From: Candidatus Bathyarchaeota archaeon
GTDB taxonomy: Archaea; Thermoproteota; Bathyarchaeia; Bathyarchaeales; Bathycorpusculaceae
Assembly: GCA_963767735.1 (NCBI GenBank)
Contig: CAVYES010000006.1
Coordinates: forward strand, 32,001 to 96,000
DNA: 64,000 bases
Reading direction: 5' to 3'
Shown here: positions 9,070 to 46,489 of the stretch, in pieces
Layout of the letters: each line of letters begins with the position of its first letter
Position numbering within the stretch: position 1 is the stretch's first letter
Position numbers and translations under genes: made by a program
Notes under the pieces: model-generated
Seen by the model: only the letters and a program-made list of their open reading frames with translations
The model's database searches: none
What the model was told of the DNA's origin: nothing

Positions 9070-9154
9070 GCAAAATAAGATAAAGACGCCCAGTAGCCAT
9101 AACTTATAATTATTAAGTCTCTGAATTAATCTACAAAACGGAAAAGTACTCTGC

Positions 9155-24023: not shown

Positions 24024-24899
24024 ATGGGCATAATAATTAACGCTGACACGAAGGCGATTGTTCAGGGCATCACTGGGAAACAGGGCAGCTACCAAACCAA
24101 ACTCATGCTTGATTACGGAACCAAAATAGTGGCTGGAGTAGTTCCGGGCAAAGGCGGAACCTCAGTTAATGGAGTCCCCGTTTATGATACCGTTAAAGAA
24201 ACTGTTGAGGCGTATTCGCCTAATGCTTCAATAATTTTTGTGCCAGCGCCGTTCGCTCAAGATGCAGTTCTAGACGCTATCGCTAATAAAATCAAGACAA
24301 TAGTTGTGGTTACCGAGCATTTGCCGATAAAAGACACAATAAACCTAATGGCTTACGCAAATCAGTCGCAAGTCACTATTATTGGTCCTAACACACCTGG
24401 AATAATAACTCCTGGAGAGTGCAAACTTGGAATAATGCCAGCCAGCATCTTCAAGTCTGGCAGCGTTGGCGTGATTTCAAGAAGTGGCACTTTAACCTAT
24501 GAAATAGCGGCAGGGCTTACAGCCAACGGTTTAGGACAATCAACCTGCCTTGGCGTCGGCGGTGACCCTATTGTGGGCTTAAATTTTATTGAAGCCTTAG
24601 AATTATTCAGAGAAGACCCAGAGACTAAGGCGATAGTTTTGATTGGTGAAATCGGCGGTAACGTGGAAGAATTAACGGCAGAGTACATAGCACAAGAACG
24701 TTACCCCAAGCCGATTGTGGCTTATATGGCTGGACGATTTGCGCCGTCTGGCAAGCGGATGGGTCACGCGGGAGCCATAATAATGGGCAAGCAGGGTACT
24801 GCACAAAGCAAAATTGAAGCTTTAACAAACGCTGGAGTTAAAGTGGCTGAAACGCCTAGTGATGTGACAGAGCTCTTGATTAAGGCACTTTTGCGTTAA
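24024..24899 (+). CDS. sucD: Succinyl-CoA synthetase alpha subunit
   Basis: VQGITGKQG, GPNTPG, SRSGTLTYE, GKRMGHAGA (phospho-His). Confidence 0.93.
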   Translation: MGIIINADTKAIVQGITGKQGSYQTKLMLDYGTKIVAGVVPGKGGTSVNGVPVYDTVKETVEAYSPNASIIFVPAPFAQDAVLDAIANKIKTIVVVTEHLPIKDTINLMAYANQSQVTIIGPNTPGIITPGECKLGIMPASIFKSGSVGVISRSGTLTYEIAAGLTANGLGQSTCLGVGGDPIVGLNFIEALELFREDPETKAIVLIGEIGGNVEELTAEYIAQERYPKPIVAYMAGRFAPSGKRMGHAGAIIMGKQGTAQSKIEALTNAGVKVAETPSDVTELLIKALLR

Positions 24900-24994
24900 G
24901 ATTGGCTTTTTCTGTAAATTGCAAAGTTAAGACAAAAGGTATATTTGATACTTAACCATCAAAGACTTAGCCAAAATGGACGGTTAACAATAAT

Positions 24995-25156
24995 ATGCCA
25001 ATATTAGACCCAGTTAAAAAGGCAATAGCGCAGAAGCACAGGTTATACATGAAAATCTGCAGAGACTGCGGCGCACGTAACGCTGAAACCGCAGTGAAAT
25101 GCCGAAAATGTAAAGGCAAAAACCTGCGCTGGAAGAAACGAGAAATAGTAAAGTAA
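24995..25156 (+). CDS. rpl40e: 50S ribosomal protein L40e
   Basis: Manual translation MPILDPVKKAIAQKHRLYMKICRDCGARNAETAVKCRKCKGKNLRWKKREIVK; too short for the ORF track. Confidence 0.92.
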   Translation: MPILDPVKKAIAQKHRLYMKICRDCGARNAETAVKCRKCKGKNLRWKKREIVK

Positions 25157-25217
25157 AGAAAGAGCTTATTTTTATTTTACTTTTATCTTCGTAACTCAGC
25201 TTCCTAAATCTCTTATT

Positions 25218-25832
25218 TTACAACGTTTTTATCAGCGTTTCCATGTTGAAAAAAGTGTTGGCGCAGCCGTTCTTTAGCAACGGAACAGATTGCCAAGCCA
25301 TGCCCATGCTACTCAGCTTTTCGCCAGACATCATCACTTCTGGACCGCATGCAACACCTACAACCCCCTCATACTTCTTTTGCTTCAAAATATTAGGCAC
25401 ACAAGAACCACCAGATAAAACGTAAACGTCGTAACCTTTCTCTCTGGCAATGCCTTCCGCCTTGTTGACAAAACAGTCAGGTGAGCAATGAGCACAAACG
25501 TAAGAGTTCAAGCTCGGCTCAAAAACGGCTTGGCATTGACTATCCATGTATTTCCTACAACAGTGGGGAAGGAACAGAGCCCTCTTTTTGGTCTGCAGAA
25601 ATTCCTTTTTTTGTACCAAGTTCAAAGTTTGCATTTTAAGGAGGTCTTGAATTAGCACCACGGCATCTTGGATGTCAAGTCCTGAAACTTCCTGGATTCT
25701 GAATTTTCTGATTAATTCCTGTAAGGTTTTCTCAAAAACCTTCTGCATGCCCATTTGGTTGCCGACAATGGCGAGTTCTATGAAAAAGTGCTGCGGCGCC
25801 TTTGAGATGTCGAAAGTAAACTTATAGGGCAT
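25218..25832 (-). CDS. DUF116-family Cys-rich protein, copy A
   Basis: LFLPHCCR, CAHC..DC, GGSC, GVVGVAC, PLLKNGC. Confidence 0.8.
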   Translation of the reverse strand: MPYKFTFDISKAPQHFFIELAIVGNQMGMQKVFEKTLQELIRKFRIQEVSGLDIQDAVVLIQDLLKMQTLNLVQKKEFLQTKKRALFLPHCCRKYMDSQCQAVFEPSLNSYVCAHCSPDCFVNKAEGIAREKGYDVYVLSGGSCVPNILKQKKYEGVVGVACGPEVMMSGEKLSSMGMAWQSVPLLKNGCANTFFNMETLIKTL

Positions 25833-26023
25833 AAATCAAAATGAATAAAGATCCAAACTTAAAAAGAATATCTCTTATGGAGGGTGAGGAAACACATTTT
25901 TGCTTTAGCAAGGAAGCGTGCTTTAGATCATTTATCTCACTGATTTAGGCGCAGCTGGCAAAAAATGACGCTTCTAAAAAGAAAAGTGGCAACCATTAAC
26001 CCACGCAATGAGCAGGCTCGAAA

Positions 26024-26638
26024 CTATAGAGTTTTCACGAGAGTTTCCATATTAAATACTGTATTTGCACATCCATTCTTTAACAACGGTATAGCTTGCC
26101 CGGCTACATTTAAGCTGTTCAAAAATGGCTCCAGCACTCTCATTTCTTCTCCACACGCAATTCCCACTACGCCTTCGTAATGTGTATTCTTCAGAATCTT
26201 GGGTATGCATGAGCCGCCTGGTACCACGTAAACGTCATATCCTTTTCCCCGAGCCAAGCAGTCAGACTGGCTAACTAAGCAGTCTTTTGAACAGTGGGCG
26301 CATGAGTATGACGGGATATCTGAATTAAAAACTGCTTTGCAGCGTCCGTCTAAGTACTTTCTTGTGCAGTGAGAAAGAAAGAGAGCTCTTTTCTTGGTCT
26401 GCAAGAATTTGCCTCTCTCTATCATGTTTACTGCCTGTAAATCAATAAAGTCCTGAAGCAAGACTAAGGAATCAGAAAGATTTAGTCCCGTAGCCTCTTG
26501 TATTCTGAACCTTATAATAATTTCCTGTAATTTTTTAATTAATGTTTTATGCATGCCCTTCTGGTAACTCACCGTCGCAATTTCGGTGAAGAAGAAACGC
26601 GGTACCTTTGACAAGTCGAAAGTAAATTTATAGGGCAT
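26024..26638 (-). CDS. DUF116-family Cys-rich protein, copy B
   Basis: Same motifs and same 204-aa length as copy A. Confidence 0.8.
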   Translation of the reverse strand: MPYKFTFDLSKVPRFFFTEIATVSYQKGMHKTLIKKLQEIIIRFRIQEATGLNLSDSLVLLQDFIDLQAVNMIERGKFLQTKKRALFLSHCTRKYLDGRCKAVFNSDIPSYSCAHCSKDCLVSQSDCLARGKGYDVYVVPGGSCIPKILKNTHYEGVVGIACGEEMRVLEPFLNSLNVAGQAIPLLKNGCANTVFNMETLVKTL

Positions 26639-29783: not shown

Positions 29784-30821
29784 ATGGTAAAATTTAGTGG
29801 CTGTTACACTGCGCTAATAACCCCCATGACTCGTGATCGCCAAGTCGATTACGAAGGCTTGCGTCAACTGGTAGCTTTCCAAATAAAAGAAGGTGTAAAA
29901 GGTATACTCGCCGTCGGCACTACCGGAGAAAGCCCCACCTTAGACTGGAGTGAACACAACAAGGTTATTGAAAAAACCCACGAATATGCAGGCGCAGAAG
30001 TTTTAACTATCGCTGGAACAGGAAGCAACTCAACGCAGGAAGCCATCGAAGGCACAGAGCACGCCCAGCGCACAGGCATAAAATGTGTTCTGCTTGTAGA
30101 CCCATACTACAATGGGCCAAGCTCGATGGAAATACGTAGAGAATACATTGAGCCAATCGCACGGCAGTTTCCTGAAGTTCAAGTAATTCCATACATTATT
30201 CCAGGCAGGACAGGAACCCAACTTTACCCGCAAGACCTCGCTTTACTTCACAAGCAATACCCAAATGTCAGCTGTGTAAAGGAAGCCACTGGCGACTTGA
30301 AAAACATGGAGTTAACCCGCCAATTCTGCGGTGAAGACTTTGATATTCTCTCAGGAGACGATGACAAAACCTATACTATGATGATTTCGCCCGACATAAG
30401 AGCAAGCGGCGTAATATCTGTAATCTCTAATGTAGCTCCGAGTGCTGTTGTTGATATGGTGCACTATATTCTGGATGGCAACGAAGAGGCGGCAAGCGTA
30501 ATCGCCCAAGCACTGCAACCGCTCTTTAGCATAGTTACCGTTAAAACACAAGAACAAACCTTATACGGCGAGGTTGCATGCAAAGCTCGCAACCCTCTCG
30601 CCTACAAGACGCTAATGAACGTTTTAGGCATGCCATCAGGCCCTTGCAGACAACCATTAGGTAAAATGACTCGCAACGGCTTAGAAGTAGTGCTCACAAA
30701 CGCCAGAAAAGTGTACGAGAACACCTCTGAAATCCTTCAGCCCATTGAAGACTACTTCAACGTCGACTTGAAAGAGCGATTGTATAATGAGAAGTACTTA
30801 GAGGGGCTTTTCTATGCTTAA
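29784..30821 (+). CDS. dapA: 4-hydroxy-tetrahydrodipicolinate synthase
   Basis: GTTGESPTL, PYYN, IPGRTG, VKEATG, LSGDD. Confidence 0.92.
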   Translation: MVKFSGCYTALITPMTRDRQVDYEGLRQLVAFQIKEGVKGILAVGTTGESPTLDWSEHNKVIEKTHEYAGAEVLTIAGTGSNSTQEAIEGTEHAQRTGIKCVLLVDPYYNGPSSMEIRREYIEPIARQFPEVQVIPYIIPGRTGTQLYPQDLALLHKQYPNVSCVKEATGDLKNMELTRQFCGEDFDILSGDDDKTYTMMISPDIRASGVISVISNVAPSAVVDMVHYILDGNEEAASVIAQALQPLFSIVTVKTQEQTLYGEVACKARNPLAYKTLMNVLGMPSGPCRQPLGKMTRNGLEVVLTNARKVYENTSEILQPIEDYFNVDLKERLYNEKYLEGLFYA

Positions 30822-31608
30822 GTTATGTGTGGCAGGCGCCGCAGGCAGAATGGGCAACGCTATCATCAACGAAGCTACCTCAAAAGGGCATCAAATAGCT
30901 GGCGCAGTCGAGGCTCCAAATAATCCCTGCATAGGCAAAACCTTGCGGGAACTTGGCGTTTCCAATTCCGATACAAAAATTCAAAGTTCCGACCGATTGA
31001 GTGAAGCATTACGTGATGCTGACGTTTACGTTAGTTTCACGATGCCCGCTGCTGAAGTGATTAATATACCTATAGTCGTTAACCTTGGAAAACGCATAAT
31101 CCTTGGCACCACAGGTTTTACTCCAGAGCAAAACCGTCGAGTAGTTAACGCCATGTCAGGCAAAGTTCCAGCCGTGTTCTCGCCAAACTATTCAGTAGGC
31201 GTCAACATACTGTTCAAGATAGCTGAAGGTTTGAAGGCTTTTCCATCAGGATATGATTTCAGCATAAACGAAATCCATCATACCGGGAAAAAGGATGCTC
31301 CAAGCGGGACAGCAAAGAAGCTAGGCGAAATCATCGCTAACACGCGCGGCTACACAAAAGTAGTTTCGGGAAGAGAAGGCATAAGCCCAAGGCAGCCTGG
31401 TGAACTTGAAATCACAGCTCTGCGAGCAGGAGGAGTTCCAGGAATCCACGACCTAATCGTTGCAGGACCATATGAGATGTTGCGCATAGAGCACACAGCG
31501 TTCTCCCGTAACGTTTTTGCTCAAGGTGCTGTTTACTCAGCTGAATGGTTAAGTAAACAAAATGAGCTTAAAGTGTTTAGTATGGCTGACGTCTTAGGCT
31601 TATCTTAA
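30814..31608 (+). CDS. dapB: 4-hydroxy-tetrahydrodipicolinate reductase
   Basis: GAAGRMG, GTTG, EIHHTGKKDAPSGTA. Confidence 0.95.
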   Translation: MLKLCVAGAAGRMGNAIINEATSKGHQIAGAVEAPNNPCIGKTLRELGVSNSDTKIQSSDRLSEALRDADVYVSFTMPAAEVINIPIVVNLGKRIILGTTGFTPEQNRRVVNAMSGKVPAVFSPNYSVGVNILFKIAEGLKAFPSGYDFSINEIHHTGKKDAPSGTAKKLGEIIANTRGYTKVVSGREGISPRQPGELEITALRAGGVPGIHDLIVAGPYEMLRIEHTAFSRNVFAQGAVYSAEWLSKQNELKVFSMADVLGLS

Positions 31609-31675
31609 CAGAAAAATCAACCATTAACTTTTTTATCAAGGAAAAACAACTCAGAAGCAAAAGGAAGAACCAATA

Positions 31676-32734
31676 ATGTCGATGAAGCGTAAAGTCGCCA
31701 TATTAGGCGCAACCGGAGCCGTTGGACAACGGTACATTCAATTACTGCAGGGGCACCCGTGGTTCCAAATTGAGGTGCTTGCTGCTTCAGAGCGGTCAGC
31801 AGGCAAAAATTACGGGGATGCTTGCAATTGGGTTATGGAGTCAAACTTGCCCAGAGAAATTGCTGAAATGCCCGTAGCCAACGCTGATGTGGAGTCAGTG
31901 GAGAAGGCAGGCGAGGTGGATTTGGTGTTTTCGTCTCTTCCAGGCGACTTGGCTGGTCCAGTTGAGTCTGAGTTTGCGGCGCTTTTTCCGGTTTTCAGTA
32001 AGGCAAGCGCTCATCGCATGGAAAAAGATGTTCCTTTACTCATTCCAGAGATTAACCCTGATCATGTGGATTTAATTAAGATTCAGCAGAAGTCGCGAGG
32101 TTGGAAAGGCTTCATAACGACTGATCCAAACTGTAGCACTATCCAACTTGCAATTTCGCTAAAGCCTTTGATGCAGTTTGGCTTAAAGCAAATTATTGTT
32201 TCCACCATGCAGGCGCTTAGTGGAGCAGGATACCCGGGTGTTCCATCTTTAGATATAATCGACAATGTTGTTCCCTTCATCTCAGGCGAAGAAGAGAAAA
32301 TGGAGGCGGAAGCCCTAAAAATACTTGGCTCCTTCAACGGCAAAGTTGTCCAAAACGCTGATTTCAAGCTTAGCGCAAGCTGCAACAGAGTTCATGTAAA
32401 GGATGGCCATTTAGAATCAGTCTTCATCAAGCTCGCAGAGGACCCCTCAATAAAAGAAATAGAAGCTGCCTTTGCCAACTTTAGCGGCGAACCGCAAAAG
32501 CTCAAATTGCCCTCTGCTCCGAAAAATCCAATCGTGGTTCGGCATGAGAAAAACAGGCCTCAACCTCGTTTTGACCGAGATACAGGCTGCGGAATGAGCG
32601 TTGTAGTTGGCAGAATTCGCAAGGACCCCATTATGACTTTCAAGTACATGTGTCTTGGACACAATACCATTAGGGGCGGTGCAGGCGCAGGCATTCTGAG
32701 CGCTGAGCTCTTTGTAGCAAAAGGTTTAGCTTAA
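31676..32734 (+). CDS. asd: Aspartate-semialdehyde dehydrogenase
   Basis: GATGAVGQ, PNCST, QALSGAG, SCNRVHVKDGH, HNTIRGGAG. Confidence 0.95.
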   Translation: MSMKRKVAILGATGAVGQRYIQLLQGHPWFQIEVLAASERSAGKNYGDACNWVMESNLPREIAEMPVANADVESVEKAGEVDLVFSSLPGDLAGPVESEFAALFPVFSKASAHRMEKDVPLLIPEINPDHVDLIKIQQKSRGWKGFITTDPNCSTIQLAISLKPLMQFGLKQIIVSTMQALSGAGYPGVPSLDIIDNVVPFISGEEEKMEAEALKILGSFNGKVVQNADFKLSASCNRVHVKDGHLESVFIKLAEDPSIKEIEAAFANFSGEPQKLKLPSAPKNPIVVRHEKNRPQPRFDRDTGCGMSVVVGRIRKDPIMTFKYMCLGHNTIRGGAGAGILSAELFVAKGLA

Positions 32735-32772
32735 CTAATGCTCAAAATAACGCATTCACTGGTGTAGACAAC

Positions 32773-34056
32773 ATGGTAAAGAGAAAGCTTCGTGAACCTT
32801 TAGAAGACCGAAAAGGAAACTTGTTCTTCGACGGCGTTTCGGTTAAGGAATTAGCAGAAAAATACGATACGCCCCTGTACGTGGTAAGTGAGAAACGCAT
32901 CAGGGATAATTATAATCGGATTTATGACGCGCTAATCCGTAATTACAAGTACGTGCGGGTTTATTATGCTGCAAAAGCCAACTCCAACCTCACAGTCCTG
33001 AGGATTCTCCAGTCACAAGGGGCATACTTAGACACTGTCAGCCCTGGCGAAGTGTTCATGGGCTTAATCAGCGGGTATACGCAAGACCGCATAATGTTTA
33101 CAGGAACCAGCGTCCGAAACGACGAATTAAAAATGTTAGCAGACGCCAACATCACTGTAAATGTGGATTCTCAACCAGAGCTAGATAGGCTGCTAAAGAT
33201 TGGTGTGCCCCAGATTTTGTCAGTGCGTGTTAACCCCGAAATCGGCGCCGGCCATCACAGCCACTGCATCACGGCTGGGCCAGACTCAAAATTTGGGCTT
33301 TGGGAAGAAGAAACAATACAGGCTTATGCGATTGCTAAGAGAGCAAGAGTGGAACGCTTTGGCATTCACATGCACATTGGCTCAGGCATCCTTGGCGTGG
33401 AGCCTTATGTTTTGGCGGTGGATAAGCTGTTGAGCATAGCTAAACGTGTTCACGACGAAGTAGGCATAGATTTCGAATTTATCGATATCGGCGGCGGATT
33501 TGGAGTACCTTACAAGCCAGAAGACAAAGAATTTGATTTAGCTGAATTTGCCGCAAAAGTGGTAGCGCCGTTCAAAGGCAAAGTTGCTGAGTATGGTCTC
33601 GGTAAACCATTTTTGTGCATTGAGCCAGGCAGATACTTGGTCTGCGACGCAAGTATCCTCTTAACAACCGTTAACACTGTCAAGGTTACACCTTCAAAAA
33701 AATTCGTTGAAGTAGACGCTGGCTTCAACACATTGGTTAGGCCAACGATGTACGGATCCTACCATCCAATACTAGTTTCAAACAAGCTCGCATTAGCAGA
33801 TAAAGAAACCTACGATGTGGTTGGTCCAATTTGCGAGTCGGGTGATTCTTTAGCCAAAGATCGGACATTGCCCCAGGTTGAAGAAGGTGACTTACTGGCG
33901 GTTTTGAATGCTGGTGCATACGGTTTCAGCATGAGTTCACAATACAACGCAAGACCACGCGCTGCAGAAGTCCTGATTAGGCAAGGTAAACCCGTGGTGA
34001 TTAGGGAACGCGAGCAGCTTGATAATTTAACGGCTAATCAACGGACGGCAGAGTAA
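32773..34056 (+). CDS. lysA: Diaminopimelate decarboxylase
   Basis: YAAKAN, SKFG, HMHIGS, EPGRYLV, GPICESGD, AGAYG. Confidence 0.95.
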   Translation: MVKRKLREPLEDRKGNLFFDGVSVKELAEKYDTPLYVVSEKRIRDNYNRIYDALIRNYKYVRVYYAAKANSNLTVLRILQSQGAYLDTVSPGEVFMGLISGYTQDRIMFTGTSVRNDELKMLADANITVNVDSQPELDRLLKIGVPQILSVRVNPEIGAGHHSHCITAGPDSKFGLWEEETIQAYAIAKRARVERFGIHMHIGSGILGVEPYVLAVDKLLSIAKRVHDEVGIDFEFIDIGGGFGVPYKPEDKEFDLAEFAAKVVAPFKGKVAEYGLGKPFLCIEPGRYLVCDASILLTTVNTVKVTPSKKFVEVDAGFNTLVRPTMYGSYHPILVSNKLALADKETYDVVGPICESGDSLAKDRTLPQVEEGDLLAVLNAGAYGFSMSSQYNARPRAAEVLIRQGKPVVIREREQLDNLTANQRTAE

Positions 34057-34058
34057 CC

Positions 34059-34901
34059 GTGACTCGTTTTTGGAAGATGCATGGTTTAGGAAACGACTAC
34101 ATAGTGATCGACAACAGGGGCGAGAAAATTAGCGGTGCACAAGCTGCAGAATTAGCTAAGAGGCTTTGTGTAAGGCGCTTCTCGGTTGGAGCGGATGGTC
34201 TTTTGTTGGCTTCTTACTCTAAAGCTGCTGATGTTAAAATGAGGATTTTCAACGCTGACGGCAGCGAAGCAGAAATGTGCGGCAACGGAATAAGATGTCT
34301 TGCTAAGTACTGCTACGAAAACAGCATCGTGCCAAAGCAAGAGTTCACAGTTGAAACACTTTCAGGCTTAAAGCATGTATGGTTAACAATAAAGGAACGA
34401 GAGGTTAGTGCTGTCAAGGTGGATATGGGAGCGCCAAACTGGGAAAGAAGCTCCCTTCCCATGCTCGGACAAGGCACATTCATCAACGAGGACTTAGAAA
34501 TCAAAGGTGAAATCTACAAAGCAACATGCCTCTCAATTGGCAATCCTCACTGCGTAACATTCGTTAACCAAGCAGACAGTTTCCCAGTGGAGCTTGTCGG
34601 TCCAGAAATTGAGAACTATAAGGTATTTCCGAAAAGAACCAATGTCAGCTTCGTTCAAGTCCTAAACCAAAACGAGTTGAAAGTTCGTATTTGGGAGCGG
34701 GGTTGCGGCGAAACATTAGCGTGTGGTACTGGAGCCTGTGCTGCTGTGGCTGTTGCAAACAAGCTTGGAAAAGTGGGAAACAAAGTTACCGTACATGTCT
34801 TGGGCGGCGACTTGCAGGTGGAAGTGGCTGACGGCTTGTTTTTGAGTGGTGCAGCCGAAAAAGTTTTTGAAGGAACGCTGTTTGGAGAGGTCTCAACATG
34901 A
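34059..34901 (+). CDS. dapF: Diaminopimelate epimerase
   Basis: KMHGLGND, NADGSEAEMCGNGIRC, GNPH, ERGCGETLACGTG. Confidence 0.96.
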   Translation: MTRFWKMHGLGNDYIVIDNRGEKISGAQAAELAKRLCVRRFSVGADGLLLASYSKAADVKMRIFNADGSEAEMCGNGIRCLAKYCYENSIVPKQEFTVETLSGLKHVWLTIKEREVSAVKVDMGAPNWERSSLPMLGQGTFINEDLEIKGEIYKATCLSIGNPHCVTFVNQADSFPVELVGPEIENYKVFPKRTNVSFVQVLNQNELKVRIWERGCGETLACGTGACAAVAVANKLGKVGNKVTVHVLGGDLQVEVADGLFLSGAAEKVFEGTLFGEVST

Positions 34902-36058
34902 CGTTTGAATATGCAGAGAGAATAAAGCGTTTGCCGCCATACCTGTTTGTTGAAATTGAGAAACAAATTAAAGAAAAAAGGGCTCAAGGCATAGACTTAA
35001 TTTCGCTTAGCATCGGCGACCCCGACCTTCCGCCTCCAAACTTCATCTTAGACGCGCTCAAAGAAGAGGCGGCTAATCCAAAGAACCATAATTACTCCTT
35101 CAGCCAAGGCGAACCAGACTTCCGGGAAGCAGTCGCGAACTGGTACAAGAAACGATTCAGCGTTGACCTGCAACATGACCAAGTGGTCGCGCTTTTAGGA
35201 TCCAAAGAAGGTATAGCAAACATCGCACGCGCATTCATAAACCCTGGCGATCGCGTGTTTGTTCCTGACCCTGCTTACCCCGTGTATGCCAACGGAAGCA
35301 CGATTCTTTGTGATGGCACAACGGTGCCGTTACCGTTATTCGAGGAAAACGGGTTCAAGCCAGACTTTGAAGCAGTTAAGCCAAAGGACATTAAGATGAT
35401 GTTTCTCAATTATCCCAACAACCCGACGGCAGCTACAGTTGACAAAGACTTTCTCAAAGAAGCAGTAGACTTCGCCAAAGACAACGGCATTATCCTCTGC
35501 TATGACAACGCCTACTCCGAAGTAACCTACGACGGCTACCGAGCCCCAAGCATACTGGAAGTAGACGGCGCCATGGATGTTGCAATTGAATTCCACTCAC
35601 TTTCAAAAACCTTCAACATGACAGGCGACCGCATCGGCTTCGCAGTTGGAAACAAGCAACTCGTCAGCGGCTTAACCAAGGTTAAATCGCAAATAGATTC
35701 TGGACCGCCCGTTTACACCCAGAAAGTCGCAGTTAAAGCCTTAGCCGCCTACACAAGCCGCGAACCGCTTGAGTTCCTAAAGAAAAACAACCAAATTCTG
35801 CAGGAACGCCGCGACCTGCTTGTTGAAACACTCTGCAAAATAGGCTACAAATGCGAGAAGCCCAAAGCAACCTTTTACGTTTGGGTTAACTGCAAAGGTG
35901 ACTCAATGCAATTCGCAACTAAACTGCTTAATGCTGGTGTGGCTGTTACGCCAGGCATCGGATTTGGCATGCACGGCGAAGGCTACGCGCGAATAACGTT
36001 TAATCAGCCCAAAGAACGCATAGTTGAAGCCTGTAATAGAATCGCCAGCGCACTCTGA
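34898..36058 (+). CDS. dapL: LL-diaminopimelate aminotransferase (class I PLP)
   Basis: LPPYLF, IGDPD, NYPNNPT, DNAYSE, SLSKTFNMTGDRIG; last gene of the dap operon; no dapD/dapE in the operon. Confidence 0.82.
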   Translation: MTFEYAERIKRLPPYLFVEIEKQIKEKRAQGIDLISLSIGDPDLPPPNFILDALKEEAANPKNHNYSFSQGEPDFREAVANWYKKRFSVDLQHDQVVALLGSKEGIANIARAFINPGDRVFVPDPAYPVYANGSTILCDGTTVPLPLFEENGFKPDFEAVKPKDIKMMFLNYPNNPTAATVDKDFLKEAVDFAKDNGIILCYDNAYSEVTYDGYRAPSILEVDGAMDVAIEFHSLSKTFNMTGDRIGFAVGNKQLVSGLTKVKSQIDSGPPVYTQKVAVKALAAYTSREPLEFLKKNNQILQERRDLLVETLCKIGYKCEKPKATFYVWVNCKGDSMQFATKLLNAGVAVTPGIGFGMHGEGYARITFNQPKERIVEACNRIASAL

Positions 36059-36286: not shown

Positions 36287-37315
36287 TTGAGGGATAGTAT
36301 GGAACGAAGGGTTATGTCGCTTGGCAGATCTTCTTTGGTTATTTCTCTTCCCAAAAATTGGATGCAGCTAAACGAATTAAAGAAAGGCGATGTTGTCTCA
36401 TTTGCCATCCAACGCGACCGCTCTTTGGTTATTTATCCTGGCGCGAAGAAAAAGACAGAGGCAAAAGAGACAACGCTCCGCATTGACACAAATGAAGACG
36501 AGCTGCTGATTACGATGAAGATAGTGGGCTGCTACCTAAACGGGTACAGCGGAATCACCCTCATCTCAGAAAAGGTTTTTTCCGTTCCGCAGATGAAGGC
36601 AATCCGCAAAGCCGCGGGAATGTTATACCTAAGAATTATGGAGTCTAACTCTAAGGGTGTTTTCATTCAAACCTTAATGGACGAAACCAAAGCAGATCTA
36701 AAGCAAACTGTACTCAGGTTGCATATGATCTCCCAGTCAATGGAGGAGGATGCGATTAAATCGCTGAAAAACAAAGACATAGCCTTGGCAAAAGCTGTTT
36801 TCTCCCTCGACGATGATGTGTACCATTTCGTCTATTTCCTTCTTAGAGTGCTTCGCGATGCTGTTCAAGGCTCAGCTTTGGCAAATGAGTTTAGGCTCGA
36901 CCCGTTGGAATGTATGGATTATCAGACCTTGGTTTACATGATGCGTGATGTGGCAGACAATTCAGCGGAAATAGCGCGGCACGTAATAATGCTGAATGGG
37001 ATTAAACAGGATATTCCTGAGAATGTATTGGAGCTGATGTTCATCGCAGGAAATGAAGCTTTGAATTTATATGTAAAAGCGGTAGACACTTTCTTTTCGA
37101 AGGATATCTCAAAATCAGTTGAGATACTTAGGCAACGAGAAGAAATAGCGAAGTTGGATTCGGAAATAGCCTCCAGAGCATTCGCAGAAAAACAACAAAA
37201 TGAGCAATTGATTTGCGCAATCTGCTCCATTAGAGATAGCATAAAAAGAATTGCGGACTGTGCCGCAAGCGTAGCAAGGATCGCAATAAATCGCGAATTT
37301 ATCTTATCTACTTAG
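36287..37315 (+). CDS. AbrB-PhoU family regulator
   Basis: N-terminal RRVMSLGRSSLVISLPKNW AbrB domain; two PhoU-like helical repeats (DDDVY; IKRIADCAASVA). Confidence 0.85.
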   Translation: MRDSMERRVMSLGRSSLVISLPKNWMQLNELKKGDVVSFAIQRDRSLVIYPGAKKKTEAKETTLRIDTNEDELLITMKIVGCYLNGYSGITLISEKVFSVPQMKAIRKAAGMLYLRIMESNSKGVFIQTLMDETKADLKQTVLRLHMISQSMEEDAIKSLKNKDIALAKAVFSLDDDVYHFVYFLLRVLRDAVQGSALANEFRLDPLECMDYQTLVYMMRDVADNSAEIARHVIMLNGIKQDIPENVLELMFIAGNEALNLYVKAVDTFFSKDISKSVEILRQREEIAKLDSEIASRAFAEKQQNEQLICAICSIRDSIKRIADCAASVARIAINREFILST

Positions 37316-39041
37316 ATACAGGATTTTTTGATGGCGGATAGCTCAAAGTCAGCGTCAACTTGCTCGGGAACAGCTCTTTAGTCAATAGTTTTCGTGCAAG
37401 TGGCAGATCGGTGTTGTAGTTGTATACTTCTTTTCCGTTGGATCGTGCGTCGCGTAGAATCTCTTTTTCAAGTTTGTGTTTTAGATCTCCAACTGTAAGT
37501 GCTCCGATTGTGAAGATTCCAGGCAGCATTTCTCGCATGTCATCTTTTAATTCTATTCCTTCGACTCCGAATGGCGGTACTGCATTTATGTCAAGTAGGA
37601 CCTTCATGGTTTTGACTTCATTCAGCATTTCTTTGTCTATGATGCGAACGCCCATTACTCCTGCGCACATCACTACATCGGCTTTCTTTATGATCTCAAT
37701 TTTCGAAGCTGGAGTTGGCGCGAATATGCCTTCCACTTGAACGCCGTGATCCTTGGCTAATAGTTTAGCTATGCCCTCAGCGTGTTCTTTTCCGTCAACG
37801 CGTTTCGGATTAAGACTGGCAATCATTACTTTGCATCCCATTTTAGCCAAGAGAACAGCAGCTATTTGTCCTACTGCACCTGTGCCTAGGATAGCGACGG
37901 TTTTAGTTTTCAATTCCCCAAGTTTGCTTGCTTCGAGAGCATTTTCGGCTTTTGCTACCATGGCGGCGGCAGTTGTATATGCACCAGCTGGGTCAACGAT
38001 TATGCTTGCTTTGAATGGTGGAAACATCGCATCTTTCATAACTTCAAAGACTTGTTCGGCTCTTTCAGCATTTTTCCCTCCGATCAGAAAGCAGGTGTGC
38101 TTAACTGCCTTGGGTCCTCTGGAGAGTAAAGCGTCCATCACTATACTTTTGACGTCTTCAGGAATGATGTTCTGGTAAGGAACGACTGCATTGTATCCAG
38201 CATCGTAGGCCATGCAGATGTCAAATGGACTTGCTTTAACGTCGGTGTCGAGGTAGAACAGCAGGTATGGCGCGTTTTCAGCTGCTTTTCCGACAACGGG
38301 CTTAACCTGAATCTGCATTGATTGGAGCCAGTTTTCCATTTCCATTGAAGATGGGGTTTCAACCTGAGTTGAGATTATTCTTTTGGAGAGTTTTGCGATT
38401 TCGACATTAGCGTTGACCGATTCCAGCATTTGCTTAACTCCAGCAACGTGCTCGGGGCTGCAAATGTGCAGGCATGTTATCTCGTCTTTGTTCTTGATTT
38501 CTCTTGCGCGCTCCATTATATCCATGACCATCCAGCTTTCTCTTACTGAGAAATTGACTTCGCGTTCTTGTTCCTCTATTTCGGATTGTAAACTCTGGCC
38601 GTATGCAACGAGGTAGTCTCTCTCTGTGGAATCGTCGCTTTTTTGTCTGTTTAGGTTTTCTATGTTCTTGATTATGCTGTCTCTTAATGCTGTTTTTTTG
38701 TCAAAAGCAGATTCAAGATAGGTTTTAGCTTCGCTGTCTATGTCAACGGGGAAGAAGGGTATGCTGCTTTTTTTGAACACGTCGGCTAAGATGTTATCTT
38801 CGAAGAATTCCTTTTGAGATCGATTGCCTAGCTCTTCCGTGACGAAGTCTATATTTACTTTGGCAACCACGTTCTCGACGAATTTGTAGAAGCCAATTGA
38901 TGGTTTTTGGAGAGCTTTTAGGCTATCTTGCTTTGCGGAGAAAGATTTTTCTAAAAGCTGAAAAGGTTCATTGTATTCTTTTTCCTGTATCATTACTGTT
39001 AAATTCTTTTTTTCAAGAGGTTTTACTTCAAGTACTTTCAT
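37308..39041 (-). CDS. NAD(P)-dependent methylene-H4MPT dehydrogenase (MtdB-like) with extra N-terminal domain
   Basis: SPFDICMAYDAG, SRGPK, DPAGAYTTAAAMV, GTGAVG, DINAVPPFGVEG from residue ~257; AGGAGG RBS upstream. Confidence 0.82.
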   Translation of the reverse strand: MKVLEVKPLEKKNLTVMIQEKEYNEPFQLLEKSFSAKQDSLKALQKPSIGFYKFVENVVAKVNIDFVTEELGNRSQKEFFEDNILADVFKKSSIPFFPVDIDSEAKTYLESAFDKKTALRDSIIKNIENLNRQKSDDSTERDYLVAYGQSLQSEIEEQEREVNFSVRESWMVMDIMERAREIKNKDEITCLHICSPEHVAGVKQMLESVNANVEIAKLSKRIISTQVETPSSMEMENWLQSMQIQVKPVVGKAAENAPYLLFYLDTDVKASPFDICMAYDAGYNAVVPYQNIIPEDVKSIVMDALLSRGPKAVKHTCFLIGGKNAERAEQVFEVMKDAMFPPFKASIIVDPAGAYTTAAAMVAKAENALEASKLGELKTKTVAILGTGAVGQIAAVLLAKMGCKVMIASLNPKRVDGKEHAEGIAKLLAKDHGVQVEGIFAPTPASKIEIIKKADVVMCAGVMGVRIIDKEMLNEVKTMKVLLDINAVPPFGVEGIELKDDMREMLPGIFTIGALTVGDLKHKLEKEILRDARSNGKEVYNYNTDLPLARKLLTKELFPSKLTLTLSYPPSKNPVSK

Positions 39042-39087
39042 GTTTTTTGCCTCCTTATTATTGGTTTTACTAGTATGGAGGCGAAAA

Positions 39088-39137
39088 TATATACTTAGTC
39101 GAAATATTGTATATGCAGATATATACGGTATATACAG
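39088..39137. promoter_or_regulatory. Cluster of TATATAC/GTATATGC motifs upstream of the MtdB-like gene (putative operator)
   Basis: Four TATAT(A/G)C cores within 50 nt; similar words upstream of the AbrB-PhoU gene. Confidence 0.4.
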
Positions 39138-39143
39138 TTTGCT

Positions 39144-40022
39144 TTACTGTATACCGCTTTTTTCATAAAATTCTTGGGGCAAAGTCGGCGACAACATTAG
39201 TTCAGTCTTGACTTTTTGCCTGCCATCTTTCGAGTGAGGTTTCCTAATCAAAGTGTCATTATATTTCTCAATTTCCCGAGCTTCTTCAGCTAATCTCGCA
39301 GCTGCTTGAGCTATCTCATGCGCGCAGGCAACTAAGGGAATGTACTTCTCGCTTTCTTTCTCCATGAAACATGCTTGAGTATCTACCTCTGCAATTTTCT
39401 CCGCCATCCCGTAAGCAGCCATTGATTTCGCTTTTGCATACGGATTATTGAAAGTCGAATTGTCTCGTACTGCATTCATGTCAATTACCACTTTAGGAAG
39501 AGTTGGAGTCTGATTGGTTTCAAGCGCATAGATCACTTTATCAATTTCTTGTTGAACAATCCTGTAAACGCCGGTAATCGCAAGTATTTTGTTGACGTTT
39601 GAATTGAATATCGCCATTTCAATAGGATCCAAGAATTCTTTTCTGGCTCCTATCAATGGATCACCAGTGATGATTATATAGCCTAATCCTTGACTTTCCA
39701 TTTCTGCTTTTGCCCGTTTTGCTGGAAAATCGGAGATCACAATGCCTGGCCGACCGCTTTTTGAAATTAGCTCTCTAGCCTTTGCCGGTCCCGGTAAAGC
39801 GGTGTTAGGTGAAATTACGACAAAAACATCTGGGTTGAATTCAAAGATTTTCGGCAAGGCGTCCTCGACATCTTCAAGACCCATTTTCGAACCCGTCGTA
39901 ACTGTTCGAACTTTGATGTCTTTTCGGTCAGCTAATTCATCGAGGAGAAGTTCAAGATTTGGTGATGTTCCAATGTTTCCACACTTAAAAATTCCGATCT
40001 TTTTAGGTTGTTGTTCAGCCAA
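39144..40022 (-). CDS. mtd: F420-dependent methylene-H4MPT dehydrogenase
   Basis: KCGNIGTS, LLDELADRKDI, SPNTALPGP, DPLIGARKEFLDPIEMAIFN, NPYAKAK, RKPH. Confidence 0.92.
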   Translation of the reverse strand: MAEQQPKKIGIFKCGNIGTSPNLELLLDELADRKDIKVRTVTTGSKMGLEDVEDALPKIFEFNPDVFVVISPNTALPGPAKARELISKSGRPGIVISDFPAKRAKAEMESQGLGYIIITGDPLIGARKEFLDPIEMAIFNSNVNKILAITGVYRIVQQEIDKVIYALETNQTPTLPKVVIDMNAVRDNSTFNNPYAKAKSMAAYGMAEKIAEVDTQACFMEKESEKYIPLVACAHEIAQAAARLAEEAREIEKYNDTLIRKPHSKDGRQKVKTELMLSPTLPQEFYEKSGIQ

Positions 40023-40331: not shown

Positions 40332-41375
40332 ATGTCAATAAACGGGAATTTAGAGAAACTCTCAAATGCTTGTGGAGTAACAGGCAGAGAAAGCGAAGTC
40401 AGAGAATTAATGATTCGGCTAATGACTCCCTACACGGATGAGATAGTTGTTGACAAACTTGAAAACGTAATCGCCATCAAAAAAGGCAAATCTGCCGCCC
40501 CAAAAATTATGCTTGCCGCTCACATGGACGAAGTCGGCTTAATGGTGAAAACCATCACTAAAGACGGTTTTCTGCAATTCACTAAAATGGGCGGAATAGA
40601 CGACCGCATCTTACCCGCTCAAAAAGTCACAATTTACTCAAGAAAAGGCATTTTCCCCGGTATAATCGGCTCAAAACCTCCGCATATTCAGAAAGAGGAG
40701 GAGCGGAAAAAAATTATAGCCTTCGACGAACTTTTCATCGATATCGGAGCCGAAAGCAAGGAAGACGCTACCGCAATGGGCGTAGCGGTCGGTGATCCAG
40801 TGGGCTTTGACATAAAATATGTTCCGTTAGGCAGGGATATCGTAATCGGCAAAGCTTTTGATAACCGAGCTGGCTGCGTTACAATGGTTGAAGCTCTAAA
40901 ATTAATGGAAAAGACCGATTATACTGTTTGCGCCGTTGGCACTGTTCAGGAAGAAGTAGGCTTACGTGGTGCCGCAACAGCAGCTTTCGGTGTTGACCCT
41001 GACTTAGCAATAGCGCTTGACGTGACCATAGCGGGTGACGTTCCTGGCGTAAGAGAATTCGACACTAGCGTTAAGATGGGTAAAGGTCCGGCACTTACAA
41101 TTTCAGATTCGGGGTTGATTACTCATCCCAAGGTTTTGCGTTGGCTTTTGGACACGGCGGAAGAAGAAAAAATCCCTTTCCAGCTTGAAACGGGATTACT
41201 CGGGTCAACTGATGCAGCAAGAATTTCCATAACCAGACAGGGCATTCCAAGCGGCAACATATCTATACCCACAAGATATATTCACAGCCCAGTCGGTATG
41301 CTATGCTTAAAGGACATAGAGAACTCGGCTAAGCTTACTGTTGCAGCGATCCAAAGAATTTCAAAATATTTCTAA
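40332..41375 (+). CDS. M42 family (TET) aminopeptidase
   Basis: AAHMDEVG, KAFDNRAG, QEEVGLRGA, STDA, RYIHSP. Confidence 0.92.
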   Translation: MSINGNLEKLSNACGVTGRESEVRELMIRLMTPYTDEIVVDKLENVIAIKKGKSAAPKIMLAAHMDEVGLMVKTITKDGFLQFTKMGGIDDRILPAQKVTIYSRKGIFPGIIGSKPPHIQKEEERKKIIAFDELFIDIGAESKEDATAMGVAVGDPVGFDIKYVPLGRDIVIGKAFDNRAGCVTMVEALKLMEKTDYTVCAVGTVQEEVGLRGAATAAFGVDPDLAIALDVTIAGDVPGVREFDTSVKMGKGPALTISDSGLITHPKVLRWLLDTAEEEKIPFQLETGLLGSTDAARISITRQGIPSGNISIPTRYIHSPVGMLCLKDIENSAKLTVAAIQRISKYF

Positions 41376-41453: not shown

Positions 41454-41903
41454 ATGAGCACGACGGAGAAATTTGCTGGAAAATTCGAGTTTTTAGAACA
41501 TACCGCTGACGTTTACATTCGAGCGCATGGCACAACAATGGAGGAAGCATATGAAAACGCGGCGCTTGCAATGTTTGAAGTTATGACCGATACTGATAAA
41601 ATCACCCCGATGCAAGAGGAAACATTAGAGGTTGAAGCCGAGGACCAATACGCGCTGCTCTATAGTTGGCTTGAAGAGTTGCTTGTTAAATTTGAAACGG
41701 AAAACATGCTTTTTTCAAAATTCCAGATAACAAACTGGGAAGAAACAGATGAAAATTTCAAAATTAAGGCGAAAGTTTTTGGGGAAAAATTTGATTCCCA
41801 AAAGCACCCGCAAAGGGTTGCTGTTAAAGCTGCAACTTATCATAGAATGGTGATTATAAGGGAAAGAGATCGTGTTATCTTAGAGTTCATCTTAGATATT
41901 TAA
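41454..41903 (+). CDS. Archease
   Basis: FLEHTADV, VKAATYH, ILDI C-terminus. Confidence 0.93.
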   Translation: MSTTEKFAGKFEFLEHTADVYIRAHGTTMEEAYENAALAMFEVMTDTDKITPMQEETLEVEAEDQYALLYSWLEELLVKFETENMLFSKFQITNWEETDENFKIKAKVFGEKFDSQKHPQRVAVKAATYHRMVIIRERDRVILEFILDI

Positions 41904-42104: not shown

Positions 42105-43166
42105 TTACTGTTTAAGCTGAGCTTGGACGGTCGCGACTGCATCGTGTTTTTTCTTCGATAATTTAAGTAGCAAGCTCTTGGAGAAGGCTCCTTCTTCCAA
42201 CGGTTTAGATTCTAAGAATCCTGTTTTTTCCGCGTTAGTGAATAGTTCTTCGCCTTTTTCCGTTCGGATAATCGTGAAGGTCCAGCCATCAAGTCCAAGT
42301 CCGCCAACCGATATGTCTGCGAGTTCAGAACTGAAATCCTCGCACACACTGCAGCTTTTTCTGACGTACTGTTTTATGTCTGCAAGGGGAATAGCAGTAG
42401 TCCCTGCAGGAGTGGTTATGAGCATTTTTCCTTTAATGTTCATTTTTGTAATGTCGTTTAGGTTGATGCCGAGTTTGCCTTTAATGTGGGTTTCCATTAG
42501 CCCTTCATAATCGAAGCACTCTGAGCACATGAGCCCCACAAGATACTTGATTGGGGAACTGTACCTTTTCACACCGTTCATCTGCATCTTTCTAACAGCC
42601 TGAATCTGACAGGGTGTGCCTACGAACGCGATTTGAGTCTTTTTTTGCTTAATAACTTCGGGCAAGCCGAGAAGCGCAGAGGAACAGGAGTATTTTGTCC
42701 CCGCTGACTCAATAATTTTGTCGGCTGATGTCGCAAGAATCGGGGTAGGAAGGAAGGGTTTTTCTTGGCTTTTTCCGGAAACTACTGCTCCATCGATTAA
42801 TCCGTTCTGGAGAGCAGCTACCAGCATTGCGGTGGCGGCTCCTCCGTCTTGGCGAACCTTCTGAATGTCGCTGGGTTTTGCTTGGGCTATAGCTATTCTG
42901 CGGAAAACTCCGAATTCCTCTTCAGACTTTCTTGACCTGCCGAAAACAAAGTTCTCGGCTTTTGCCATTTCCCAGTTGTATCGCGGGCAGGCTTGGGCGC
43001 ATATGCCACAGACTTTGCATTCTTTCGCCAAATTGGGTTTTCCTTTGGCAAATTCAAGGCTGCCGAAGGGGCAAACGACGACGCAAGTGCCACAGCTTGC
43101 GCATTTTCCGGTTTGAACAACTTCAGTTAAGAGGGAGTTCTCAAAGCTATATTTTTTTGAACTCAT
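42105..43166 (-). CDS. FrhB/FpoF-family F420-binding oxidoreductase with 2[4Fe-4S] N-terminus
   Basis: CASCGTCVVVCP, CKVCGICAQACP, QDGGAAT, VGTPCQ, GLMCSECF, CSVCEDFSSELADISVG. Confidence 0.9.
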   Translation of the reverse strand: MSSKKYSFENSLLTEVVQTGKCASCGTCVVVCPFGSLEFAKGKPNLAKECKVCGICAQACPRYNWEMAKAENFVFGRSRKSEEEFGVFRRIAIAQAKPSDIQKVRQDGGAATAMLVAALQNGLIDGAVVSGKSQEKPFLPTPILATSADKIIESAGTKYSCSSALLGLPEVIKQKKTQIAFVGTPCQIQAVRKMQMNGVKRYSSPIKYLVGLMCSECFDYEGLMETHIKGKLGINLNDITKMNIKGKMLITTPAGTTAIPLADIKQYVRKSCSVCEDFSSELADISVGGLGLDGWTFTIIRTEKGEELFTNAEKTGFLESKPLEEGAFSKSLLLKLSKKKHDAVATVQAQLKQ

Positions 43167-45010: not shown

Positions 45011-46489
45011 TTGGGCGAAAGTGAAAGCAGAAAGGCGCCAGAAGAAGTTCCGCTTGAGAAAATAAACGAGTACGCTTGGCGTATCCCAAAATATAAGCCA
45101 GGCATGAGAGTTCCTGGAATGGTTTTTGCAAACGAAGCTCTTTTAGAGAAGATGAAGACTGATCGCACACTTTGGCAATGCACAAACGTAGCGCAGTTGC
45201 CTGGAATTTACAAACATGCAATAACATTGCCTGATGGGCATGAAGGCTACGGTTTTCCAATAGGTGGCGTTGCCGCAACCGACTTTGATGAAGGCGTCAT
45301 CAGCCCTGGCGGCGTAGGTTATGATATCAATTGTGGTGTACGCCTCTTAGCCACAACGCTTACCGAAAGTGAGATTAGGCCCAAACTTGTCCCATTAGCT
45401 GAAACAATTTTCCGTAATGTTCCTTCTGGGCTTGGAAGTCGACGAAAAGACCTCTCAATATCCTCCGCCGACTTAGATCGTTTGGTCGTTGAGGGTGTGC
45501 CTTGGCTCATTAAACGTGGGTTCGGTTGGCCCGAAGACGCAGAACACTGTGAAGAAAGCGGATGCATGCCTAACGCAGACCCAGATAAGGTCTCGTCGAC
45601 CGCTAAAAGCAGAGGATTAACCCAGATTGGCACCTTGGGTTCGGGAAACCACTTCTTAGAAATACAAAAAGTAGACAAAATCTACAATCCTAAAACAGCT
45701 AAAGCTTTTGGAATTACACAAGAAGATCAAGTTACAGTCATGATTCATTGCGGTTCAAGAGGCTACGGCCACCAAGTCTGCTCCGATTACCTGCGTGTCA
45801 TGGAGCATGCAGTCCAAAAGTACAAGATAACCTTACCTGACCGCGAATTAGCCTGCGCACCTGGACACAGCAATGAAGCAAGTGATTACTTCCACGCTAT
45901 GGCCTGCGCAGTTAACTACGCTTTTTGTAATCGACATGCAATTATGCATTGGGTGCGACAAAGCTTCCAGCAAGTTTTCCAGCAGCCTCCCGAAAACTTT
46001 GGTTTAAAACTTGTCTATGATGTCACCCATAACATTGCCAAAGTGGAAACCCACAAAATTGATGGCGTAGAAAAGAAGGTTTGGGTTCACCGCAAAGGAG
46101 CAACACGCGCTTTCCCATCGGGTCACCCGGATATTCCAGCTGATTATCGCAGTGAAGGCCAACCAGTCCTTATTCCAGGCAGCATGGGTACGAGCTCGTG
46201 GGTTCTGGCAGGTTCTCAGAAGGCTATGGATTTAACTTTTGGTTCAACCGCGCATGGTGCCGGCAGAATGATGAGCCGTTCAGCCGCTAAACGGCAGTAT
46301 TGGGGAGGAGACATAAAATCGGCTTTGGAGAAGAGGGGCATTGTTGTTCGCGCGGCAAGCATTTCTGTTTTGGCTGAGGAAGCTGACCCTGCATATAAGA
46401 ATGTGGATGTGGTTGCCGACGTCAGCGACAAAGTTGGAATTGCCACTAAAGTTGCAAGACTTGTTCCTCTTGCGGTGGTAAAAGGGTAA
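45011..46489 (+). CDS. rtcB: tRNA-splicing ligase RtcB
   Basis: PDGHEGYGFPIGG, GYDINCG, GSGNHFLE, HNIAK, HRKGATR, PGSMG, HGAGR. Confidence 0.96.
   Translation: MGESESRKAPEEVPLEKINEYAWRIPKYKPGMRVPGMVFANEALLEKMKTDRTLWQCTNVAQLPGIYKHAITLPDGHEGYGFPIGGVAATDFDEGVISPGGVGYDINCGVRLLATTLTESEIRPKLVPLAETIFRNVPSGLGSRRKDLSISSADLDRLVVEGVPWLIKRGFGWPEDAEHCEESGCMPNADPDKVSSTAKSRGLTQIGTLGSGNHFLEIQKVDKIYNPKTAKAFGITQEDQVTVMIHCGSRGYGHQVCSDYLRVMEHAVQKYKITLPDRELACAPGHSNEASDYFHAMACAVNYAFCNRHAIMHWVRQSFQQVFQQPPENFGLKLVYDVTHNIAKVETHKIDGVEKKVWVHRKGATRAFPSGHPDIPADYRSEGQPVLIPGSMGTSSWVLAGSQKAMDLTFGSTAHGAGRMMSRSAAKRQYWGGDIKSALEKRGIVVRAASISVLAEEADPAYKNVDVVADVSDKVGIATKVARLVPLAVVKG

Follow-up and report, generated by a model that had tools for sequence, protein, structure and literature searches.

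Why would an archaeon keep, next to each other, two genes whose products are predicted to catalyze the same step of one-carbon metabolism with different hydride carriers? The question is raised by a 64,000-nucleotide (nt) stretch of a Candidatus Bathyarchaeota archaeon (GenBank assembly GCA_963767735.1, contig CAVYES010000006.1, positions 32,001 to 96,000; G000:C6:32001-96000 in our numbering), referred to below as the window. There, a gene for coenzyme F420-dependent methylene-tetrahydromethanopterin (H4MPT) dehydrogenase, Mtd, is followed by a gene for a protein of 577 amino acids (aa) that resembles MtdB, an NAD(P)-dependent enzyme. Bathyarchaeia rank among the most abundant archaea of the subsurface, and it is still a question how ferredoxin, F420 and NAD(P) are kept in balance in them. 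An initial annotation of the locus proposed that the two enzymes, run in opposite directions, might exchange hydride between F420 and NAD(P) through H4MPT. It overlooked the most distinctive feature of the locus, a conserved domain formed by residues 1-258 of the MtdB-like protein (the N-domain). The module is laid out as follows:

39144-40022, minus strand: predicted F420-dependent Mtd gene, 292 aa (PF01993 and NF002162)
39042-39143, minus strand: intergenic spacer of 102 nt, with AAGGAGG and AT-rich TATA-like stretches
38268-39041, minus strand: N-domain, residues 1-258 of the 577-aa protein (no Pfam family)
37308-38267, minus strand: MtdB-like, putative NAD(P)-type methylene-H4MPT dehydrogenase domain, residues 259-577 (Mpt_N plus Rossmann)

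The profile search found both expected families, Mtd and Mpt_N plus an NAD-binding domain. The upstream product matches PF01993 (MTD) with 394.9 bits over positions 2-273 of a 274-position profile, and the NCBIfam equivalog NF002162 with 388.8 bits against a cut-off of 297. These scores bear out the proposed identity as archaeal F420-dependent Mtd and indicate that 39144-40022 (minus strand) encodes the full-length enzyme; its gene starts with TTG, with AAGGAG 12 nt upstream. The 577-aa open reading frame (ORF; 37308-39041, minus strand) is co-oriented with Mtd and begins 102 nt downstream of it, exactly as annotated. Its start codon appears sound because AAGGAGG lies 7 nt upstream (about 39048-39054) and the starts of 22 fused homologs coincide with, or fall close to, the same M-x-x-L-E, a few having longer predicted N termini.

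As for the dehydrogenase moiety, Mpt_N (PF09176) matches residues 272-352 with 93.7 bits and is followed by a Rossmann domain (residues 370-490) whose G-x-G-x-x-G motif is GTGAVG (residues 386-391). Residues 259-554 align with the whole solved MtdA chain of Methylobacterium extorquens (1lu9/6tge/6tlk, chain residues 4-289) with an E value of 1.2e-37 and 132 bits, and motifs common to solved MtdA are conserved across 23 fused homologs. Since the bacterial proteins P0293 and P0298, named at their source as NAD(P)-dependent methylene-H4MPT dehydrogenases, score higher (~190 bits, 36-38% identity), "MtdB-like" is a fair name. The placement in the MtdA/MtdB family, nearer MtdB, therefore holds by score, but it applies to residues ~259-577 of a protein of 577 aa, whereas the family consists of single-domain enzymes of ~290-300 aa. 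MtdB uses both NAD and NADP. In the clade of the query, no acidic residue follows strand β2 and K/R residues lie nearby; the two motifs quoted as MtdB-like, and the IASLNPKR quoted in support of NADP, are indeed present in the translation. However, the loop after β2 varies among fused members (SLN..KR, TSRS, or the acidic VETW and VEPN), and an NADP preference of the fused enzyme is a hint only.

The N-terminal extension is real and conserved, since the best 120 of 863 database homologs of the 577-aa protein are 488-611 aa long, with a query coverage of 84-99%; the extra domain is thus kept in at least 120 homologs of this size. The N-domain stays in frame from 92% down to ~40% identity, and E70, G72, R74, A105, Y108, R167 and W170 are invariant in 23 fused proteins. 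When it was searched alone against 1.84 billion cluster representatives, 71 matches were obtained (E ≤ 1e-3), corresponding to proteins of ~550-580 aa that begin with the domain, stand-alone proteins of ~200-265 aa (one named as from a Promethearchaeota metagenome-assembled genome, MAG) and fragments. Mpt_N was present in nine of the ten longer matches scanned. One representative, P0152 (496 aa, NCBI-derived, on a contig of 12.6 kb), has the reversed order, the dehydrogenase occupying residues 16-~300 and the N-domain residues 317-489; that the parts are fused in either order strongly suggests a joint function. A stand-alone N-domain gene lies directly upstream of the fused gene in one genome (L067:6914-7549 and 7653-9302, G053), and tandem stand-alone and fused genes also occur in L080, L081, L082 and G029:C77. 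A search of 301 genomes across the phylum placed the domain in Bathyarchaeia only, apart from one marginal match (E 3e-4). A metagenome scan with P0174, an Asgard stand-alone N-domain, gave no match, and a scan with A6 returned only fused or tandem loci of the Bathyarchaeia type. The finding thus defines a small protein-domain family without a Pfam model, which the fusions in two orders tie to H4MPT-based one-carbon redox chemistry.

The AlphaFold2 (AF2) model of the N-domain (predicted local distance difference test score, 87.4; predicted template modelling score, pTM, 0.79) predicts a five-stranded α/β core with an inserted helical hairpin of ~80 residues (103-181). The full-length model of the 577-aa protein has a pTM of only 0.54, and for this reason we read no domain arrangement from it. 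None of the solved structures is a clear match to the N-domain. Foldseek found nothing in the PDB at E ≤ 0.001, and the A1 profile nothing below E 0.07 among PDB sequences; a Pfam scan of all 26 A1 members gave no common family (DUF6987 on one member, E 0.008). In VIA-align, run wide and with a second pass, matches of the helical hairpin dominate, and the α/β core gave middling, tied scores (CbiL, Z 8.9; a Tetrahymena complex IV subunit, Z 9.2). ChaN (2g5g_X; Z 8.3, root-mean-square deviation 4.2, 147 aligned) falls in the score range of common α/β arrangements. In the Atlas, unnamed archaeal clusters scored 0.87-0.89 and TraB/GumN came nearest among named families at 0.79, all under the counting level. 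Aligned by hhalign with six Bathyarchaeia TraB/GumN proteins, the N-domain gave a weak match (probability 73%, E 3e-5, 159 columns) with acidic, Arg and His positions in register and the N-terminal G-x-x-H region unaligned. PF01963 did not match the N-domain at E values up to 10, and its six-frame search of G000 produced no candidate. The TraB/PrgY/GumN/ChaN superfamily is the only lead on which sequence and structure roughly agree, and membership is not established.

The pairing with Mtd was followed in 32 related loci from species-representative genomes; for 29 of them, the sequence includes the region upstream of the fused gene. With identities of 56-95%, the loci are kin rather than independent cases. 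In 25 of the 29, the gene immediately upstream, in the same orientation, is Mtd (one copy, in L038, is degraded); in the other four (L025, L039, L040 and L041) it is not. The pairing is therefore conserved among assessable related loci, as kin, and is not chance. The contig L044 (DATGZD010000070.1) is filed under Candidatus Sulfotelmatobacter (Acidobacteriota) and carries archease, M42, Mtd, the fused gene, AbrB-PhoU and FrhB-like genes; it groups inside Bathyarchaeia in our tree and is probably a mis-binned contig. Two copies are damaged: in L053:6226-7885 (G199), the fused gene is split into two frames one base apart, and in L038:3759-6038, Mtd and the N-domain match in pieces only. These are either decaying copies or assembly errors. 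We found no description of the fusion, or of an Mtd plus MtdB-like pairing, in the literature, where supplementary tables may list these genes.

Does the N-domain track with Mtd beyond these loci? Co-occurrence was scored in one sample of 201 Bathyarchaeia genomes, in which Mpt_N was found in 47, MTD over its cut-off in 130, the N-domain profile in 20 and Fno over its cut-off in 50. The 20 N-domain genomes comprise 18 with the fused gene, G062, whose fused gene is cut by a contig end, and G005, which has a stand-alone copy only. All 20 have Mtd over the cut-off. An MtdB-like gene without the N-domain occurs in 29 genomes, none of which has Mtd over the cut-off (G176 has a sub-threshold match); they include G098, whose gene starts 70 nt from a contig end so that its N-domain status is uncertain, and two with an MtdB-like::Mer fusion (G063 and G107). 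Given 20 of 20 against 0 of 29, in this sample the short MtdB-like form replaces Mtd, while the long form accompanies it. The rule also holds at close range. In family f1, Mtd is present in exactly the 7 fused-gene genomes and in none of the 21 others. The window's own genus has four genomes with the module and eight with the short form only, the latter ~36% identical to the query dehydrogenase domain; in G114, the short gene has as neighbours the M42 and archease genes found beside the module in the window.

Adjacency does not account for the whole pattern. In the 18 fused-gene genomes, Mtd is adjacent and co-directional in eight, adjacent and divergent in two, within 2 kb in one and on another contig in seven. 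In three of the last (G020, G015 and G053), the fused gene has an Mtd-free flank of at least 4 kb on each side, and at least these three retain both genes unlinked. The 20-of-20 association supports an accessory or cycle role of the long form, which predicts it, over simple redundancy, which does not. Short forms and Mtd never occur together in the sample, which shows that loss normally removes such redundancy. That the extra-domain form is found almost only in genomes with the F420 enzyme suggests a regulated link of two hydride carriers. Among genomes with Mtd only, CofE (F420 ligase) lies directly downstream of it in G077:C39:3486-5117 and G136:C12:36189-37820, and Mer directly upstream in G110:C77:1904-4334.

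We built a tree of 58 rows (quick IQ-TREE, Shimodaira-Hasegawa-like approximate likelihood-ratio test [SH-aLRT] support, midpoint root), none of which is an MtdA sequence. Bacterial MtdB-type proteins separate from an archaeal clade (SH-aLRT 92, midpoint root), in which fused forms take several deep positions. The main clade of short forms (14 rows, support 100) falls within the fused ones, beside the reversed fusion P0152, and other N-less forms arise separately (L041, L057b/P0219 and L061). With a midpoint root only, this suggests repeated loss of the N-domain. Within the same archaeal clade, a 639-aa protein encoded by L055:5233-7152 (minus strand; G063:C16), and also by G107:C4 at ~24531-26342, is an MtdB-like domain fused to a putative F420-dependent Mer, with Mpt_N at residues 20-100, a Bac_luciferase match at residues 321-612 and 449.7 bits to TIGR03555. 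A FrhB-like gene (L055:4064-5140) directly follows it, and both genomes are without F420-Mtd. Two consecutive H4MPT steps with different hydride carriers would thus sit on one polypeptide. Because Mer is the fusion partner in both genomes, H4MPT use by the archaeal clade is indirectly supported, at the level of predicted function.

The closest public relatives of the window are Bathyarchaeia MAGs, and the stretch is present in metatranscriptome runs recorded as peat or wetland. Metatranscriptome contigs from four runs of two studies lie on 37342-39051 at 90-100% identity, DNA carry-over being possible; contigs from these RNA libraries cover the whole fused gene and span the junction of its two domains. 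Mtd (39144-40022) has almost no contig cover in the four runs, although contigs cannot rank genes. Adapter-tagged contigs end at 39032 and 39048 (two runs of one study), and AT-rich TATA-like stretches occur in the spacer at about 39081-39094, which together give a weak hint of an own transcript start for the fused gene. A scan for sigma-70-type promoters and terminators found nothing above shuffles, a type of scan that is not meaningful for archaea.

The module is flanked by the following genes:

36287-37315, plus strand: regulator with AbrB (MazE-like) and PhoU domains (PF04014 and PF01895)
40332-41375: M42 peptidase (Pfam match)
41454-41903, plus strand: small ORF labelled archease by eye
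42105-43166, minus strand: FrhB/FpoF-like F420-binding iron-sulfur flavoprotein (PF04432, PF04422, Fer4)
45011-46489, plus strand: 492-aa ORF, RtcB ligase-like by eye

The AbrB-PhoU gene is convergent to the fused gene, their 3' ends overlapping by 8 nt, and holds this place downstream in 30 of 31 assessable related loci. A distant homolog (24-27% identity) stands divergent beside the stand-alone N-domain genes of G005 and G053. The association of AbrB-PhoU with the N-domain/MtdB-like gene is more constant than the adjacency of Mtd; copies outside the window lie at L066:5825-6901, L067:5801-6808 and L056:5230-6216. The FrhB/FpoF-like protein, which has an N-terminal 2x[4Fe-4S] domain, reaches 239.3 bits with NF006807, under the cut-off of 269. 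Ten of the 32 related loci have a homolog of 59-91% identity no more than ~6 kb away from the fused gene, and we regard this gene as a neighbour of the module only. M42 and the by-eye archease are constant left-hand neighbours. Farther away, window positions 29784-36058 (plus strand) hold six co-oriented ORFs that look by eye like lysine biosynthesis genes (DapA, DapB, Asd, LysA, DapF and an aminotransferase).

As for the metabolic setting, G000 (3.04 Mb, 94.9% complete) encodes CofE and is thus predicted to make F420, and it has the H4MPT enzymes that flank Mtd, namely Mch and two Ftr, as well as CdhC and Fae (in an open frame of 481 aa). Neither FolD nor MTHFR was matched in this genome, and searches for Mer gave only luciferase-like matches of at most 80 bits against a cut-off of 348.7. 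With no Mer over the cut-off and no MTHFR match, methylene-H4MPT would be a node without an obvious reductase. Across the sample, Mer follows no pattern: it exceeds its cut-off in 6 of the 20 genomes with the N-domain, in 7 of the 29 with a short form only and in 40 of the remaining 152. CofE is present in all 61 genomes of the order, short-form-only genomes included, and is therefore uninformative on the module.

What, then, could the module be for? The explanation that we favour, with a probability of roughly 0.4, is that it adds an accessory NAD(P) enzyme to Mtd, links F420 and NAD(P) through H4MPT and uses the N-domain for gating or binding. Both enzymes would act on the methenyl/methylene-H4MPT couple, the fused enzyme as an accessory to Mtd and not as a stand-in for it, and the fused enzyme would connect the H4MPT one-carbon node, and through Mtd also the F420 pool, to NAD(P). 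With both running, the net reaction would be F420H2 + NAD(P)+ <-> F420 + NAD(P)H, with H4MPT as the hydride relay. The N-domain would gate activity or bind a partner or ligand, which would explain why it is retained where the two enzymes coexist and usually lost where the MtdB-like enzyme has replaced Mtd. By analogy with known relays, an NAD(P) outlet or inlet at the one-carbon step also served by Mtd would necessarily allow F420-NAD(P) exchange through H4MPT, and an H4MPT-mediated F420H2:NAD(P)+ cycle is plausible. The distribution rule also leads to a proposal, open to direct test, of how F420 and NAD(P) might be linked in organisms that have no Fno.

Several points weigh against this explanation. 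Whereas the genes, their domains and conservation, the co-occurrence rule and the fused gene's presence in RNA libraries are observations, the enzyme activity of the archaeal members, the pterin and nicotinamide specificity, the cycle and the role of the N-domain are deduced, and the loop after β2 varies within the fused family. The sampled genomes are kin and not independent, and where the genes are adjacent, as in f1, joint loss by single deletions inflates co-occurrence. Two genomes outside the sample break the rule: G201 (L041) has an N-less gene almost identical to the long form together with an Mtd 21 kb away, and G202 (L040), of uncertain completeness, has the fused gene and no Mtd that we could find. 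In the sample, G005 combines a stand-alone N-domain and Mtd with no MtdB-like gene, which shows a role of the domain on its own and hence that it can act without the dehydrogenase. Fno does not help either. The prediction that genomes with the pair would lack fno turned out not to discriminate: Fno over the cut-off is missing from 19 of 20 N-domain genomes (G038 has it), and 46 of the 152 genomes that have neither feature carry it, but in the order of the window it is present in 1 of 15 genomes with the domain and 2 of 36 without. Because order-mates without the N-domain miss Fno equally (34 of 36), this check cannot decide. In G000 itself nothing exceeds the Fno cut-off, but a 192-aa ORF (71.4 bits against 149.8) matches solved Fno at E 1e-10 to 1e-11, which leaves "no Fno" uncertain. 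Finally, many Bathyarchaeia are Mtd-only and without Fno, so that an F420-NAD(P) link is not a general requirement.

A carrier switch without a purposeful cycle would fit the co-occurrence data as well, and our data do not separate the two. The enzymes would then be isoenzymes, F420 serving reductive flux and NAD(P) serving oxidative flux from Fae- or serine-derived methylene-H4MPT, with the N-domain keeping the NAD(P) enzyme off while Mtd works so that the redox pools do not equilibrate. With Fae but neither Mer nor MTHFR over threshold in G000, the methylene-H4MPT end of the branch could be oxidised; the TATA-like stretch and Shine-Dalgarno sequence of the spacer, together with the contig ends at 39032-39048, hint at separate transcription; and a regulator, AbrB-PhoU, is conserved beside the gene. 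Regulation is read here from gene context, however, and a switch would lead one to expect genomes with the long form only, just as there are genomes with the short form only; G202 was the one possible long-only case found. We consider such a switch possible but doubtful. Further along the same line as the favoured explanation, the N-domain could be a docking or sensor module that joins the MtdB-like enzyme to Mtd or makes its activity depend on the state of F420, NAD(P) or the pterin; the pair would then form an H4MPT-relay F420H2:NAD(P)+ transhydrogenase, and the Asgard stand-alone copies would do a related job. If true, F420 and nicotinamide pools would be coupled in non-methanogenic archaea by a route that has not been described before. 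Complex prediction of the 577-aa protein (A3) with Mtd (A4) gave scores of 0.07 and 0.18, below the mark of 0.32, which speaks neither for nor against binding. We rate this elaboration as quite unlikely.

The N-domain might instead be catalytic, for example a TraB/GumN/ChaN-like hydrolase acting on a pterin, F420 or a related compound, or the dehydrogenase might use another pterin; either would be unlikely in our estimate. A catalytic N-domain would suit the hhalign match and its residues in register, the ChaN score, the invariant charged residues E70, R74 and R167, and the existence of stand-alone genes, but PF01963 misses the domain, the TraB G-x-x-H region is unaligned, and the structural scores lie in the common α/β range, which CbiL reaches too. 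As for another pterin, FolD has no match in G000, and MtdA reportedly works with both pterins, tetrahydrofolate as well as H4MPT (PMC9012536). On the other hand, MTHFR as well as FolD is missing from the matches in G000 (Fhs and other tetrahydrofolate-dependent enzymes were not searched), and the Mer fusion, which belongs to that archaeal clade too, argues for H4MPT. That the module is an inherited, redundant cassette in which the N-domain is a structural or oligomerisation appendage would be consistent with loci all from one class, most of them from one order, and with the linkage of the f1 genes, which would be gained and lost together. We judge such neutral legacy very unlikely, since the N-domain stays in frame over a wide range of divergence, occurs on either side of the dehydrogenase and in tandem duplicates, Mtd and its fused partner gene are retained together when unlinked, and short forms never coexist with Mtd in the sample, which shows that redundancy is normally lost.

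How does an accessory NAD(P) enzyme beside Mtd compare with known systems? The rule that the long form accompanies and the short form replaces Mtd means that pathway reconstructions in which "Mtd" counts as one function need correction. The "Mtd" of termite-gut Bathyarchaeia of group Bathy-6 (Loh et al. 2021, PMC7886697) matches the short forms replacing Mtd; in the portion of that account available to us, neither coexistence with F420-Mtd nor an N-terminal domain is described, and the source of F420H2 is called unclear. The nearest precedent for a two-dehydrogenase hydride relay is the coupled Hmd and Mtd system of hydrogenotrophic methanogens, which the initial annotation had invoked and which is documented in the part of PMC12350162 consulted. 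There too, two non-homologous methylene-H4MPT dehydrogenases share a couple, Mtd is one partner and hydride passes from a donor to a second carrier. In contrast, the partner here is an NAD(P)-type MtdB-like protein with an extra domain and not an [Fe]-hydrogenase, the host is no methanogen, and the activities are predicted. Like MtdB and MtdA of methylotrophic bacteria, the fused protein combines Mpt_N with a Rossmann domain; it is 36-38% identical to the proteins named NAD(P)-dependent methylene-H4MPT dehydrogenase and aligns over the full length of solved MtdA. The archaeal proteins differ in forming their own clade, in their 258-aa N-terminal domain, in a 3-4-residue insertion after β2 and, in fused form, in coexisting with F420-Mtd, which bacteria lack. 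TraB/PrgY/GumN/ChaN proteins resemble the N-domain only, through a weak profile-profile match, a weak ChaN match and the Atlas score of 0.79, and are unlike it in the missing Pfam match, the unaligned first conserved motif and the long helical hairpin insert. Finally, Fno performs the same net reaction as the proposed two-enzyme cycle, but as a single small enzyme of unrelated sequence that transfers hydride directly, with no pterin.

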